A DNA stretch of 43,551 nt from a virus (lineage: Duplodnaviria; Heunggongvirae; Uroviricota; Caudoviricetes): the IMG/VR virus record IMGVR_UViG_2718217869_000004. One strand, given 5' to 3'. Below, piece by piece: positions 36,554 through 39,508 of this stretch (position 1 is the stretch's first letter; every line of letters begins with the position of its first letter). The position numbers were made by a program, and so were the translations under genes. Under the pieces are notes generated by a model, which worked only from the letters and a program-made list of their open reading frames with translations, did not search any database and was not told the DNA's origin.

Positions 36554-37158
36554 GCGTTAGTTTCTCCACAGTCACGACACGCCACGGCGCCCGGAGCTGC
36601 ACACTCGCGGGCGTCATTACTTTCTGAAATGCAAAAAATTTTGTAGACCAGTGCTGCATGCTCCTGCAGCTTCGAAATTGAGAGGTACAGCTCGTCGTTA
36701 ATTGCTGTCTTCTCATGCGGTTCCACTACACCGTCTTCAATTGCTGAACGAATCTGTTTTGAATAACTGCCGATCTGTTCAATGACTTCCAGCAGGCGCT
36801 GGTTAATATCGGCGTTGTCCACATCCTCGACGTCAGGAAGAGACACAAAGACGCCATTTGCAGACTGCGCCACAGCGTCAGCAATGAAGTGAGTTCCACC
36901 AGCACGTTGCAAAATCATTGCCCATCCCAGCGGGAAAATCTGATCGCCATCGGCACGAAGGCGGTTAAATAATGCGTTCTCTGTTACATCCAGCCAGTCA
37001 GCTGCTTCAGCGTAACCACCCGGCAACTTTGCGATAGTTTTTCTGACAGCTTTCACGTACCACTCAGGCTGTTTTTCTACTTTCCAGTGATGCTTACCCA
37101 CGGTTAGCCTCATCGTTCTGTGGTTTCTGTTAATCGATTTATCCATTAGATTTTTCAT
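36550..37158 (-). CDS. Phage regulatory protein, CII-like
   Basis: Position immediately downstream of cro-like gene; family call from memory, start codon uncertain (37146 or 37158). Confidence 0.5.
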
Positions 37159-37339
37159 AAAGCTCAGGTTTAAATGGCAACCGTCCGCAAGTTCTATATG
37201 CAGCTTCTGCTGCACGTCCTTTTGGAATTAACTGGCCCGGACGGTTTCGCCACTGATAAACGGCTTCAGTTGTTATGCCGAAAAAAGCAGCAACTTTCTC
37301 AATACTGCCGAAGTAGCTTTCGATATCGTCAGTTGTCAT
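37139..37339 (-). CDS. cro: Cro-like HTH regulator
   Basis: 66 aa, ...GSIEKVAAFFGITTEAVYQWRNR... HTH; divergent from the CI-like repressor. Confidence 0.75.
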   Translation of the reverse strand: MTTDDIESYFGSIEKVAAFFGITTEAVYQWRNRPGQLIPKGRAAEAAYRTCGRLPFKPELYEKSNG

Positions 37340-37436
37340 ACGCCCTCCAAACTAAGTTTTATTAGATGCTAATTACAAATCTATCTTTGGTCAATAAAAA
37401 CTAAGATTACTTAGTAATTAAAGAAATGGTGCTCCT
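37340..37436. promoter_or_regulatory. Divergent immunity promoter/operator region (between cro-like and cI-like genes)
   Basis: AT-rich 97 bp with repeated ACTAAG half-sites: ACTAAGattaCTTAGT palindrome at 37400-37415 and actaagttttattagat at 37351-37367. Confidence 0.6.
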
Positions 37437-38063
37437 ATGGAAACGGTTGGTCAGCGTATAAAAGCTCTGAGAAGAGTTACCAGAACGTCCCAGAAAGAAT
37501 TGGGTAAATTTTGTGGAGTAAGCGACGTTGCTGTGGGGTACTGGGAGAAAGACATCAATACCCCTGGTGGGGAGGCACTTTCGAAATTAGCGAAGTTCTT
37601 CAATACGTCAATAGATTACATTCTTTATGGTGCTGAGTTTGAAGGCAAACTCGTCACAAACATGCGCAGAGTTCCTGTAATATCGTGGGTTCAGGCTGGG
37701 CAGTTTACTGAGTGCAGGGCAGCAGAAGTGTTTAGTGAAGTGGACAAGTGGGTAGATACATCATTAAAGATTGGTGATAACTCATTTGCATTAGAGGTTA
37801 AAGGTGACTCCATGACTAACCCTAATGGCCTCCCAACAATACCAGAAGGCGCAACAGTGATTGTAGATCCAGATGCAGAACCTCGTCATGGAAAAATAGT
37901 CATCGCTCGACTTGATGGAACAAACGAAGCTACAGTAAAAAAATTAGTCATCGATGGCCCTCAAAAGTTTTTAGTGCCATTAAATCCTCGGTATCCCAAC
38001 ATCCCTATCAATGGTAATTGCCTTATCATTGGTGTAGTCAAAGGAGTTCAATACGAACTCTAA
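37437..38063 (+). CDS. cI: CI-like repressor (HTH plus S24 LexA-type autopeptidase domain)
   Basis: N-terminal HTH (...SQKELGKFCGVSDVAVGYWEK...), C-terminal ...GDSMTNPNG...KIVIARLDGTNEATVKKL with Ser/Lys dyad. Confidence 0.9.
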   Translation: METVGQRIKALRRVTRTSQKELGKFCGVSDVAVGYWEKDINTPGGEALSKLAKFFNTSIDYILYGAEFEGKLVTNMRRVPVISWVQAGQFTECRAAEVFSEVDKWVDTSLKIGDNSFALEVKGDSMTNPNGLPTIPEGATVIVDPDAEPRHGKIVIARLDGTNEATVKKLVIDGPQKFLVPLNPRYPNIPINGNCLIIGVVKGVQYEL

Positions 38064-38248
38064 GACCTCTCTTCTCTAACTAAGGCACCGAACTAAGAAA
38101 AGTTTGGTGTTTTCTCTTGCCATAACAACTAAGTTAAGTTAGATTTTATGTCAAAGATAACGAACAGGCAGGACGCCCACGAAGTAGCCGCCTGGGGCAT
38201 ATGAAGTCCAAGATGATTCGTTGAGTCATGTTGTGCCACTAGGCACTC

Positions 38249-38545
38249 ATGTTAAAGCAGGTGTATGAAATGAAAGTCCAGATTTTAAACAATAACTGTG
38301 AAGTCGTTTGGTCATACGACATAGCCGCCCATGTAGATCAGAGCGGCGATAGCTGGGCCAATGGGAAACATCAGATTATGGCTGGAGTTGTATTCTCTTT
38401 ACGCCGTGCTTTAGAACAGGCTGAAGTCTTTCCATCAGACCCTGAATGGAAATGGCCTTTTTCTATTTGTCCAAATTCGGAGAGTACATTTCAGAAAATT
38501 GGTCAGAAAGTCGCACTCGAAGAGCATCAGCCAACTGTTTCCTGA
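38249..38545 (+). CDS. Hypothetical protein (about 91-98 aa)
   Basis: ORF downstream of the cI-like gene; 3' end overlaps the convergent ORF. Confidence 0.4.
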   Translation: MLKQVYEMKVQILNNNCEVVWSYDIAAHVDQSGDSWANGKHQIMAGVVFSLRRALEQAEVFPSDPEWKWPFSICPNSESTFQKIGQKVALEEHQPTVS

Positions 38546-38708
38546 TTTTTTCAGGTAACTCGTCGGCATCGCAGAAACAACAACGCTCGATCATGTTGAA
38601 AGCCGATTCGTAGAACTGTTTTTGCTGAGTGTCGCTGAGACAGGAAAAGAGCGACGTTACGATGATTTTATTAATTGCATTATCAAGTTCTTTTTCATCA
38701 AAAGTCAT
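38463..38708 (-). CDS. Hypothetical protein (81 aa)
   Basis: ORF MTFDEKELDNAINKIIVTSLFSCLSD...; convergent with and overlapping the preceding ORF by 83 nt. Confidence 0.4.
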   Translation of the reverse strand: MTFDEKELDNAINKIIVTSLFSCLSDTQQKQFYESAFNMIERCCFCDADELPEKIRKQLADALRVRLSDQFSEMYSPNLDK

Positions 38709-38817
38709 TTGATTTTCCTTTTATGTATACGGGCTTAAAAGGATACCACCGAGCCTGAAGTGGTGAAAAGACAGGCACATAACAGCTAAGTATTTTCAAC
38801 CAGAGAGAATCCTTAGC

Positions 38818-39097
38818 GTTGTGGTGAATGCGGCTCAGCGCACGCGGGTTAAGGTTGAGGCTGACAGTCGACCTTCTGTGGATACCCACCCGCCTGGTGT
38901 GCAACCTTCGCCAGGCACCGGGAGGCACCCGGCACCACAACTTTATGCTGTGTGTAGTCCTGGCGGTACCAGTTTGTACACTTGCTTCCGGCTGGTACCG
39001 CTCTTTTTACAAAACAGAGAAGAGCATCACCGGACGACGGGCTCATAACCCAATCCATCCGGGCGGCTGCCACCGCAGGTGTTCTTCTCTGTTTTGT
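38818..39097. ncRNA. Candidate structured non-coding RNA or DNA element (GC-rich, multi-hairpin), upstream of the yfdP-like gene
   Basis: No credible ORF; 9-bp helix GTTGTGGTG/CACCACAAC (38818-38826 with 38934-38942) enclosing sub-hairpins, 10-bp perfect stem 38963-38972/38992-39001, 18-bp stem 39009-39026/39080-39097. Confidence 0.35.
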
Positions 39098-39145
39098 GGA
39101 GAAACTAATCGGCCTTGCAGGGTCGATATGATGAGGAGCAACAAA

Positions 39146-39508
39146 ATGGCTAGCGAACGCAGTACTGATGTGCAGGCATTTATCGGGGAGCTGGACGGCG
39201 GCGTATTTGAAACAAAAATCGGCGCAGTTCTCAGTGAAGTCGCTTCCGGTGTGATGAACACGAAAACCAAAGGTAAGGTCTCACTCAACCTGGAAATCGA
39301 ACCATTTGATGAGAACCGTGTGAAAATCAAACACAAACTCTCATATGTTCGCCCGACTAACCGCGGGAAAATTTCCGAAGAAGACACCACCGAAACGCCG
39401 ATGTATGTCAATCGCGGTGGTCGCCTGACTATTCTGCAGGAAGACCAGGGGCAATTACTGACTCTTGCCGGTGAACCTGACGGAAAACTCCGCGCAGCAG
39501 GTCATTAA
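39146..39508 (+). CDS. YfdP-like phage protein (120 aa)
   Basis: ORF from MASERSTDVQAFIGELDGG...; upstream in-frame extension is GC-rich non-protein-like sequence. Confidence 0.65.
   Translation: MASERSTDVQAFIGELDGGVFETKIGAVLSEVASGVMNTKTKGKVSLNLEIEPFDENRVKIKHKLSYVRPTNRGKISEEDTTETPMYVNRGGRLTILQEDQGQLLTLAGEPDGKLRAAGH

Follow-up and report, generated by a model that had tools for sequence, protein, structure and literature searches.

What is encoded by the 437 bp that lie upstream of yfdP, at positions 38709–39145, in the Caudoviricetes sequence IMGVR_UViG_2718217869_000004 of IMG/VR (43,551 nt, hereafter called the window)? The whole window is an Escherichia coli prophage of SfV/e14 type, and the original prediction, made from its sequence, had described this block as a GC-rich noncoding region with several hairpins, possibly a structured RNA. 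We found that the block is indeed a locus of structured RNA and represents an unannotated, very common variant of the known prophage small RNAs (sRNAs) STnc100/PasD, DicF, and sRNA-17. The structured-RNA interpretation is supported by a full-length match to the STnc100 model of Rfam, by compensatory changes in about 100 phage copies, and by a homologue whose transcript has been mapped. The anatomy of the element (table 1), its membership in a family defined by a profile, the covariation of its helices, a pseudoknot, and an intrinsic terminator were all observed directly. The original prediction had overlooked that the block consists of separate modules, of which the leftmost ~75 bp are separately conserved next to a divergent gene, and had missed both the pseudoknot of the core and the terminator nature of a 10-bp stem that has a DicF-like context.

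A Pseudoknotted Core of the STnc100 Family

The Rfam scan that the original prediction had suggested revealed an alignment of STnc100 (RF02076) to 38788–39010 on the plus strand, covering model positions 1–206 of 206 with 46.5 bits (E = 1.1e-8 in a scan of 1 kb and 4.9e-7 in the whole window). Because this score falls below the gathering score of 47 bits, a default Rfam scan is silent here. Scores are 30–46 bits throughout the subfamily to which the window belongs and 30–41 bits in relatives of the same subtype. As in STnc100, the core contains a closing helix (P1), a P2 hairpin, and a CCGGGAGGCACCCGG hairpin directly abutting the closing helix, and a terminator stem followed by TCTTTTTA begins 21 nt past P1. 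The closing helix of the original prediction exists, with GTTGTGGTG at 38818–38826 as its 5' arm; its 3' arm had been placed one nucleotide too far to the right (38934–38942 instead of 38933–38941). The perfect 10-bp stem (38963–38972/38992–39001) is present as described, and since TCTTTTTA follows, it is an intrinsic terminator. An 18-bp stem with one G-U pair (39009–39026/39080–39097) is also present and grows to 25-nt arms (39009–39033/39073–39097) which are 84% complementary.

To analyze covariation, which had also been suggested, viral contigs were scanned with the most conserved 20-mer of the core, yielding 120 loci with 85 distinct cores and, below 88% identity, 34 representatives. RNAalifold, run on 32 cores, recovered P1, P2 (5 bp, a bulge, and a UNNGC loop), P3, and P5, each with compensatory changes; P3 is GCG/CGC in the consensus and GGG/CCC in the window. 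A profile (R1) trained on 32 diverse phage cores gave 77 bits for the window, which belongs to the training set. Copies outside the training set scored 74 bits (phage P1), 76 bits (RCS47), 63 bits (a Klebsiella element), and 58 bits (Qin of E. coli K-12). Among 105 distinct profile matches, 97.4% of the cells were paired and 11 of the 20 base pairs were altered on both sides. In 500 shuffles, no pairing measure came up to the value observed for these copies, and only 39–53% of the cells remained paired when the partners were shifted by 1–3 columns. Rfam and profile scans of the window detected no second copy of the core.

Almost every copy contains a pseudoknot, in which the P4 loop is complementary to the strand after P2 and P3, with sequences that vary by phage. 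The window has AAGGUUG/CAACCUU where phiES15 has AAGGCUG/CAGCCUU, and CCAGUC/GACUGG, AUCAGC/GCUGAU, and AGACUGACAAA/UUUGUCAGUCU occur in other copies. The mean pairing score was 5.99 for matched strands versus 4.04 for mismatched strands, a value which none of 5,000 permutations reached; visual inspection of the 30 distinct best-duplex pairs found roughly two dozen that are clearly complementary. The Rfam consensus of STnc100 does not include this pseudoknot, nor is it mentioned in a 2026 comparative paper on PasD and STnc100. P5 is almost invariant, also among copies that had been selected without a P5 pattern; in the Qin copy it reads CCUGG/CCAGG, a compensatory change.

Folding energy gave little evidence for the core taken by itself (z = −1.8; 10 of 200 shuffles fold equally well) and strong evidence for 38780–39110, where z was −5.8 on the plus strand versus −3.2 on the minus strand, which supports the strand assignment. 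The case for more structure than expected by chance rests mainly on the comparative data. The claim of GC richness holds locally: 38816–39003 has 61% GC, whereas the whole 437-bp block has only 52%, compared with 38–45% in the flanks and 50% in the window.

The element shares with STnc100 (also known as EcOnc27 or sRNA103) and with PasD1/PasD2 the closing helix YRUGGUG/CACCAYR, the AAU junction, a P2 with UNNGC loop, the invariant CACCGGGAGGCACCCGGCACCA, and a downstream intrinsic terminator. STnc100 is an Hfq-bound sRNA downstream of stx2B; it and its Hfq-dependent prophage relatives PasD1 and PasD2 have been detected by Northern blotting (PMC4104026, PMC8550237, PMC5331693). The EDL933 strain has 11 STnc100 copies, one of them verified by Northern blot, and copies are transcribed in lysogens. 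On the other hand, the window differs from STnc100 by compensatory substitutions in P2 and P3 (GCGGC...GC-CGC and GGG/CCC), by a 5' extension (conserved module, CACAYAACAG, and the P0 stem), and by a DicF-like 3' part. It is also located in the early-left operon, whereas canonical STnc100 occupies a late "moron" site downstream of Q and stx. Canonical copies have a sigma-70 promoter (TTGACx-17/18-TAAaTT) ending 4–6 nt before P1, the place which is taken by P0 in the window; a promoter scan and inspection of 38709–38817 found no promoter-like site on the plus strand.

Relationship to DicF and sRNA-17

The Rfam model of DicF (RF00039) aligns to 38949–39003 over model positions 1–52 of 52, and UGGCGGUAYCAGUUU is common to both RNAs. 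In variants of the locus that are "empty" or carry a tRNA (see below), no DicF match was found at E up to 5; thus, the link to DicF rests on the alignment in the window, the common stem sequence, and synteny. Like dicF, the element lies in a repressor-controlled early-left operon with an internal terminator, downstream of small open reading frames (ORFs) and upstream of the next genes. Both have a P0-type stem, a P1-closed core, ~15 nt of single strand, and the shared sequence above as 5' arm of the terminator; the order in K-12 (AUAAC, P0-type stem, GUUGUGG, P1-closed core, DicF) is the architecture of the window. The linker of the window corresponds to the 5' seed region of DicF, with a different sequence: K-12 has UUUCUGGUGACG, which is complementary to ftsZ, and the window has GCUGUGUGUAGUC, so that targeting of ftsZ cannot be assumed. 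The core before the tail is of STnc100 type in the window and of a different type in Qin, where the STnc100-type core follows dicF.

In K-12, DicF arises from the dicBp transcript as a 190-nt form that needs RNase III and a 53-nt form that needs RNase E; neither a ydfABC-dicFB-ydfDE species nor a transcript into dicB was detected, and primer extension found no internal promoter in the precursor (10.1101/2023.04.14.536235). Counted 190 nt back from the annotated 3' end of dicF, the 5' end of the longer form maps to the P0-type stem, within its 3' arm. In the window, the P0 stem and the single-stranded linker are found at the places corresponding to these processing sites.

Comparison of ST64B, phiES15, phage P1, a phage encoding Shiga toxin 2a (Stx2a), and IMG/VR contigs showed that CACAYAACAG is followed by a covarying P0 stem which abuts P1. 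By eye, GCUAAG/CUUAGC of the window is replaced by GGUAAGAGCAUU/GGAAUGCUCUUUCC in phage P1, GAAGCGCAUU/GGAAUGCGCUUC in phiES15, and GAUAAGAG/CUCUUAUC in ST64B. The P0 inserts of an mEp460-type locus (L004, 2230–2350; L numbers are our labels for compared sequences) and of L039 (7040–7165) contain two T-arm-like motifs, CTGGTTCGATTCCAG and GTCCGTTCAATTCGGAC; ARAGORN found no tRNA in these two inserts.

The closest mapped transcript is sRNA-17 of E. coli K1 strain RS218, a 193-nt RNA which was detected by Northern blot, mapped by rapid amplification of cDNA ends, and assigned to the cI–yfdP interval of an mEp460-like prophage (PMC7719688). We placed it by its primer sequences, whose ends are at CGTTGTGGTGAATGCG and ...GGCTGGTACCGCTCTTTT (PMC7719688), and by the sequence of L004. 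The window shares the same interval, the first 16 nt (CGUUGUGGUGAAUGCG), the P1 3' strand, and an identical terminator, whose 5' arm (UGGCGGUACCAGUUU) is almost the same in DicF. CGUUGUGGUGAAUGCG and the GGCUGGUACCGCUCUUUU terminator are located at 38816–38832 and 38990–39007, which predicts a transcript of 192 nt versus 193 nt for sRNA-17. However, the interior of the sRNA-17 core is of mEp460 type, with a P5 of CCGG-AGAUCAGCA-CCGG, and its linker is different.

The original description of sRNA-17 reported no Rfam homologue and regarded it as an ArcA-controlled gene; strain Ecol_545 (CP018976), which is identical to the window, was listed there with a "degenerate sRNA-17," the BLAST search having matched the terminator only (PMC7719688). 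When sRNA-17 was replaced by a cat cassette, yfdP reads rose from 0.49 to 47 (~95-fold) and yfdR reads from 0 to 8.5 (PMC7719688). We read the rise of yfdP as a polar effect because the homology arms keep the terminator; the reported yfdP and yfdR "targets" may therefore reflect polarity.

Terminator, Hairpin 2, and an Exchangeable Slot

T-tailed hairpins of diverse sequence follow 97 of 119 cores, mostly 20–39 nt downstream. Between P0 and the linker, the content varies by phage: the slot may be empty or hold an STnc100-type, mEp460-type, or Qin-type core, or a tRNA-Arg(UCU). This tRNA, with encoded CCA, occupies the slot in L165 (5629–5705), L154 (2273–2349), and L246, preceded by CACACAAC, P0, and GUUGUG and followed by the AGCUGUGUGGAGUC linker and terminator. 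The linker motif UGCUGUGUGUAG(U/G) is kept in core-less, tRNA-bearing, and core-bearing variants. A candidate long-range duplex between CACAYAACAG and the UGCUGUGUG linker had z-scores of −2.5, −3.5, and −2.0 in three homologues and of about zero or above in four; in one Klebsiella variant, P1 is flanked by AACAG/CUGUU.

Hairpin 2, in the yfdP leader, repeats the pattern of AACAG, a P0-like stem, and UUGUGGaGAAa without a core. Its 5' arm (ACAAAACAGAGAAGAGCAU) is similar to AACAG joined to the 5' arm of P0, and the sequence that flanks it on the 3' side (UUUUGUGGAGAAAC) is similar to the 5' strand of P1. Hairpin 2 has the appearance of a second cassette entry that lacks a core. In ST64B, the stem stays paired although one G-C pair is replaced by A-U and two further changes involve wobble pairs. 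It is possible that hairpin 2 is an RNase III substrate or a stability element of the yfdP leader.

Proposed Processing of an sRNA Precursor and Its Alternatives

Taken together with the homologues, the block is probably a dicF-type sRNA locus of an SfV/e14-like prophage, in which an early-left precursor is processed to a trans-acting RNA and its terminator is limiting in cis. Transcription entering from the left would produce a precursor consisting of P0, the 124-nt pseudoknotted five-helix core, ~19 nt of single strand, and the intrinsic terminator, to which read-through transcripts would add hairpin 2. Cleavage by RNase III or a similar endonuclease at the P0/P1 base (~38812–38817) would give a long form of ~190–195 nt (~192 nt), and RNase E cleavage in the linker a short, DicF-like form of ~55–65 nt (~60 nt), both ending in the terminator U-tract (~39006–39008). 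Transcript ends, Hfq binding, and RNase dependence are known only from the homologues, and by analogy with them processing, trans action, and the cis barrier are expected in the window phage. An exposed GCUGUGUGUAGUC next to a U-tailed terminator is the usual layout of Hfq-dependent pairing RNAs, which makes action in trans on host or phage mRNAs most likely, with a target set predicted to be unlike that of DicF. Within the window, a search for candidate seed targets matched only the site of the seed itself. In cis, the terminator may act as a barrier which holds yfdPQR-xis-int low. The resulting prediction is a DicF-like regulator with a new seed, expressed on firing of the prophage early-left operon.

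Several observations weigh against this proposal. The STnc100 score lies 0.5 bit under the gathering score that defines membership, and DicF reaches 15.4 bits against a cutoff of 48 (E = 0.18 in an 81-nt scan). The core of sRNA-17 has a different interior and was not detected by the R1 profile, so its homology rests on position, identical flanks, and the identical terminator. P0 of the window, with only ~10 bp and one mismatch, is short for RNase III, and the near invariance of P5 exceeds what a base-pairing sRNA needs. As no own promoter was found for the window subfamily, expression in the lysogen is uncertain, though sRNA-17 was detected without induction. In addition, the rise of yfdP in the sRNA-17 replacement could be read-through from the inserted cassette, the terminator being retained.

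An independent STnc100-type gene with its own promoter, constitutive in the lysogen rather than a piece of the PL transcript, would agree with the strong promoters beside P1 of canonical members, with transcription of STnc100 copies in EDL933 lysogens, and with detection of sRNA-17 in uninduced LB (lysogeny broth) cultures, its upstream fragment being bound by phosphorylated ArcA (PMC7719688). Yet 38709–38817 lacks a plus-strand promoter-like site, the 5' flank is a covarying P0 as in the DicF precursor, which has no internal promoter, and an RNA can be detected without induction when part of the population is spontaneously derepressed, which has been reported for dicBp; we regard such a gene as unlikely. 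A tRNA-like and possibly tRNA-derived core with a function of its own (decoy, protein-binding scaffold, or stabilizing 5' cap) instead of a passenger role on a base-pairing sRNA, matured by RNase P at P1, also has several features in its favor. Its topology is that of a class II tRNA: P1 takes the place of the acceptor, P2, P3, and P4 take those of the D arm, the anticodon arm, and the long variable arm, and P5 is a T-like stem of 5 bp directly next to the 3' strand of P1; tRNA-Arg(UCU) takes the same slot, with parallel 5' ends (GUGGCAU-UA-GCUC in the tRNA and GUGGUGA-AU-GCGG in the core); the 5' end of sRNA-17 lies at the P1 base, where canonical promoters also set the start; P5 and junction sequences are almost invariant; and in phage P1 the operon that contains the element also has three tRNAs. 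This reading is nevertheless quite unlikely, given a P5 loop of 5 nt instead of 7, the absence of a 3' CCA and of a T-loop/D-loop signature, and a 5' end of the 190-nt K-12 DicF that depends on RNase III instead of RNase P; sharing of the slot may merely reflect a permissive insertion site. Identity as a tRNA or tmRNA was rejected: ARAGORN recognized none in the window or in six related loci, and the tRNA model of Rfam none on the cores.

A purely cis-acting leader, whose core governs the terminator as a riboswitch-like attenuator or as a put-like RNA conferring terminator resistance on RNA polymerase, sets in this way whether PL transcription extends into yfdPQR-xis-int, and gives any stable RNA as a by-product, is in our view very unlikely. 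It could account for a conserved P1-closed domain that precedes an intrinsic terminator by 20–39 nt in 97 of 119 copies, for the location of cores inside long operons (early-left in the window, phiES15, and Klebsiella; ban in phage P1; late in Stx phages), for the lack of an N-like gene in the inspected PL region, and for the near-identical P2 (CCCCCUGUGCGGAGGGGC) and terminator (GCCCCUCUCCGGAGGGGC) hairpins of many canonical copies, whose arms could be swapped. However, antiterminator pairing is not family-wide (the window, L016, and L026 types show none), and arm swapping is plausible only for the commonest canonical type, so that a riboswitch-style antiterminator was rejected as a general mechanism. 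Canonical members give discrete terminated RNAs on Northern blots (PMC5331693, PMC8550237), which indicates that the core does not abolish termination; the core of phage P1 has no terminator behind it, and the "empty" and tRNA versions keep linker and terminator without a core. The put RNAs of HK022 are also structured RNAs in lambdoid early operons, and no N gene is obvious in the region inspected here; but put is ~70 nt long with two stems directly after PL/PR, whereas our element lies ~640 nt from PL, and terminators behind STnc100 cores work. The putL/putR sites and PL/PR regions of HK022 gave no match to the family profile at E up to 1 and fold differently; the sole resemblance, a short one (CAAUGCUNCUCAU), is to the 3' arm of P0 in some relatives, and a put-like antiterminator was rejected. 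Finally, the block might be a DNA-level site (operators, a recombination hot spot, or a module boundary) or a degraded protein gene. The inverted repeat of 38716–38785 by the divergent gene start, with a possible minus-strand promoter, may act as DNA, and the mosaic structure of the block includes a recombination joint near 38961. Against a DNA site, 38785–39097 varies in a compensatory manner in five helices and the pseudoknot, which DNA would not need, and the signal is plus-strand specific.

As to coding, the original prediction had seen no credible ORF and had named a frameshift-corrected ORF as an outcome that would speak against it. Mechanical ORFs of 75, 80, 74, and 49 amino acids do exist, and the RefSeq annotation by PGAP nominally supplies such an ORF, a "frameshifted hypothetical protein" pseudogene at 38821–39131 which spans core, terminator, and hairpin 2. 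In the family as a whole, the frames identify this pseudogene as an annotation artifact. No ORF of the block matched Pfam; no frame is open across the core in most of the 85 distinct homologues (the best is open in 46), and their core lengths modulo 3 are distributed 32/27/26. The PHROGs families phrog_3651, 33599, and 36251 match ORFs read from the noncoding DNA of the block, and these matches reflect the ORF calls of other annotators on the same DNA. A protein-coding reading was accordingly rejected. For 38785–39097 both the DNA-site and the coding reading fail, and for the block as a whole they are extremely unlikely; a DNA role of the left module is possible.

Distribution of the Core and Its Significance

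The 437-bp block is 100% identical in the chromosomes of Ecol_545 (CP018976) and C1 and 98.6% identical in phage SfV. Matches to the block were found in 2,786 of 5,426 complete E. coli genomes (about half), of which 1,814 hold most of it, and the element is also present in phages SfV, SfII, SfIV, and ST64B. Being just under two Rfam thresholds, it has either gone without annotation or been labeled a "terminator" or a spurious pseudogene. Its recognition joins four separate literatures, on STnc100/EcOnc27, PasD, DicF, and sRNA-17.

Cores were also observed in other contexts. In phage P1, a complete core (L007, 3000–3127; genome positions 70076–70203) fills the unannotated upl–tciA spacer of the C1-controlled ban operon, which also has a "dicF-like region" and three tRNA genes. 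In K-12 MG1655, the STnc100-type core of Qin (1649452–1649583; L247, 2953–3084), with a long P1 and an intact pseudoknot, is situated in the dicB 5' leader, after the dicF terminator and before the start codon of dicB. Some viral contigs contain tandem arrays of 3–5 STnc100-type cores ~250–260 nt apart (L071, 4377–5462 and 8377; L034, 1723–2344 and 3211; L026, 370–991; L017, 2323–3353). In the 2026 Pas paper, PasA/PasD copies were far apart in the genome and were ascribed to repeated acquisition, not tandem duplication.

As far as the searchable literature shows, the pseudoknot, the phage P1 and Qin copies, the tandem arrays, and the tRNA-Arg swap are new; they make the family more interesting than a single locus, and the pseudoknot and the tRNA-Arg swap offer testable handles on why the fold of a prophage sRNA exceeds the needs of base pairing. 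One may speculate that the cores of STnc100, PasD, sRNA-17, and the DicF precursor form one superfamily of pseudoknotted RNAs with tRNA topology, which sit in a phage "tRNA slot" interchangeably with tRNA-Arg, occur at times as tandem arrays, are matured at the P1 base, have a dedicated partner, and carry a DicF-like tail as a separable passenger. We consider this rather unlikely. If true, the invariant nucleotides of P5 and the junction would serve a protein, RNA polymerase, a nuclease, or a ligand, and the base-pairing tail would be comparable to an sRNA from a tRNA 3' external spacer.

The Left Module

The region 38716–38785 is conserved independently of the core and is 95–97% identical in Arsenophonus and Klebsiella elements, located upstream of the holin gene in Arsenophonus plasmids and upstream of kil in Klebsiella; at least 120 viral contigs contain it. 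The left arm of hairpin A appears to hold the Shine-Dalgarno (SD) sequence of the minus-strand 81-amino-acid ORF. Among phages, the arms of hairpin A vary yet stay complementary, around a semiconserved center. The stem has at least 5 bp in 90 of the 91 distinct module contexts, and in 74 of the 91 a minus-strand ATG lies within 30 nt of hairpin A. By eye, an SD in one arm of a covarying inverted repeat was found in the window, in Arsenophonus, and in many variants. Hairpin A could be either an RNA hairpin or an operator, and a by-eye match (TTTTCA-18-TATCCT) suggests that the module may contain a weak minus-strand promoter.

Nineteen Arsenophonus plasmid records carry the left module. In pArsFIN4 of Arsenophonus nasoniae (L130, 1480–1640), a 37-nt module 97% identical to 38740–38776 of the window lies ~60 nt upstream of a holin-lysozyme cassette, beside a minus-strand ORF of 18 codons encoding a hydrophobic peptide (MSKLYFIHTTLVLWLLNI), whose SD is within an inverted repeat.

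Genomic Context

The block lies ~640 nt inside an early-left (PL-type) operon, between the repressor gene and yfdPQR-xis-int (table 1). PL and the block are separated by two convergent ORFs which overlap by 83 nt, the 98-amino-acid ORF on the plus strand and the 81-amino-acid ORF on the minus strand; only the plus-strand member is listed by PGAP and in the SfV record.

Table 1. Features of the block and its surroundings (positions in the window)
Feature	Position	Strand	Description
cro	37139–37339	minus	
cI	37437–38063	plus	LexA-like
OL/PL region	38091–38152	plus	operator repeats AACTAAG... identical to OR (37345–37420, between cro and cI)
Candidate PL promoter	38117–38145	plus	TTGCCA-17-TAGATT
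orf33			between PL and the block
98-amino-acid ORF	38249–38545	plus	full-length match to phrog_3195, function unassigned in PHROGs
81-amino-acid ORF	38463–38708	minus	ATG at 38708; full-length match to phrog_3311, function unassigned in PHROGs
Hairpin A (inverted repeat)	38716–38743		TCCTTTTA-N12-TTAAAAGGA
Conserved 5' module	38744–38785		hairpin B ACCACCGAGCCTGAAGTGGT (38745–38764), GAAAAGACAGGC, CACATAACAG (38776–38785)
P0 stem	38785–38817	plus	GCTAAGTATT (38785–38794)/GAATCCTTAGC (38807–38817), short insert
STnc100-family core	38818–38941	plus	124 nt
P1 and junction J	38818–38826/38933–38941	plus	J is AAU
P2	38830–38845	plus	5 bp, bulge, UCAGC loop
P3	38845–38849/38888–38892	plus	followed by variable insert
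P4	38893–38899/38909–38915	plus	
P5	38918–38932	plus	CCGGG-AGGCA-CCCGG
Pseudoknot	38851–38857/38902–38908	plus	AAGGTTG with P4 loop CAACCTT
Linker	38942–38960	plus	UUUAUGCUGUGUGUAGUCC; single-stranded, candidate seed
Intrinsic terminator	38961–39009	plus	stem GGCGGTACCAG/CTGGTACCGCT, loop 15–18 nt, TCTTTTTA
Hairpin 2	39009–39097	plus	25-bp stem enclosing conserved CGACGGGCUCAUAACCCAAUCCAUCCGGG, in yfdP 5' leader
yfdP start region	39098–39148	plus	conserved GGAGAAACTAA, SD GAGGAG (39133–39138), ATG 39146
Genes 3' of the block			yfdP (ATG 39146), yfdQ (DUF2303), HD hydrolase, xis, int

Other structured RNAs were observed at a distance from the block. STnc490, an Hfq-binding RNA, matched positions 469–592 of the window on the minus strand over its full model with 146 bits and is the only Rfam match in the window exceeding its gathering score. 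On the PR side of ST64B-type phages, matches to isrK and C4 antisense RNA above the gathering score were found on the minus strand (L003, 21–97; L039, 4100–4288).

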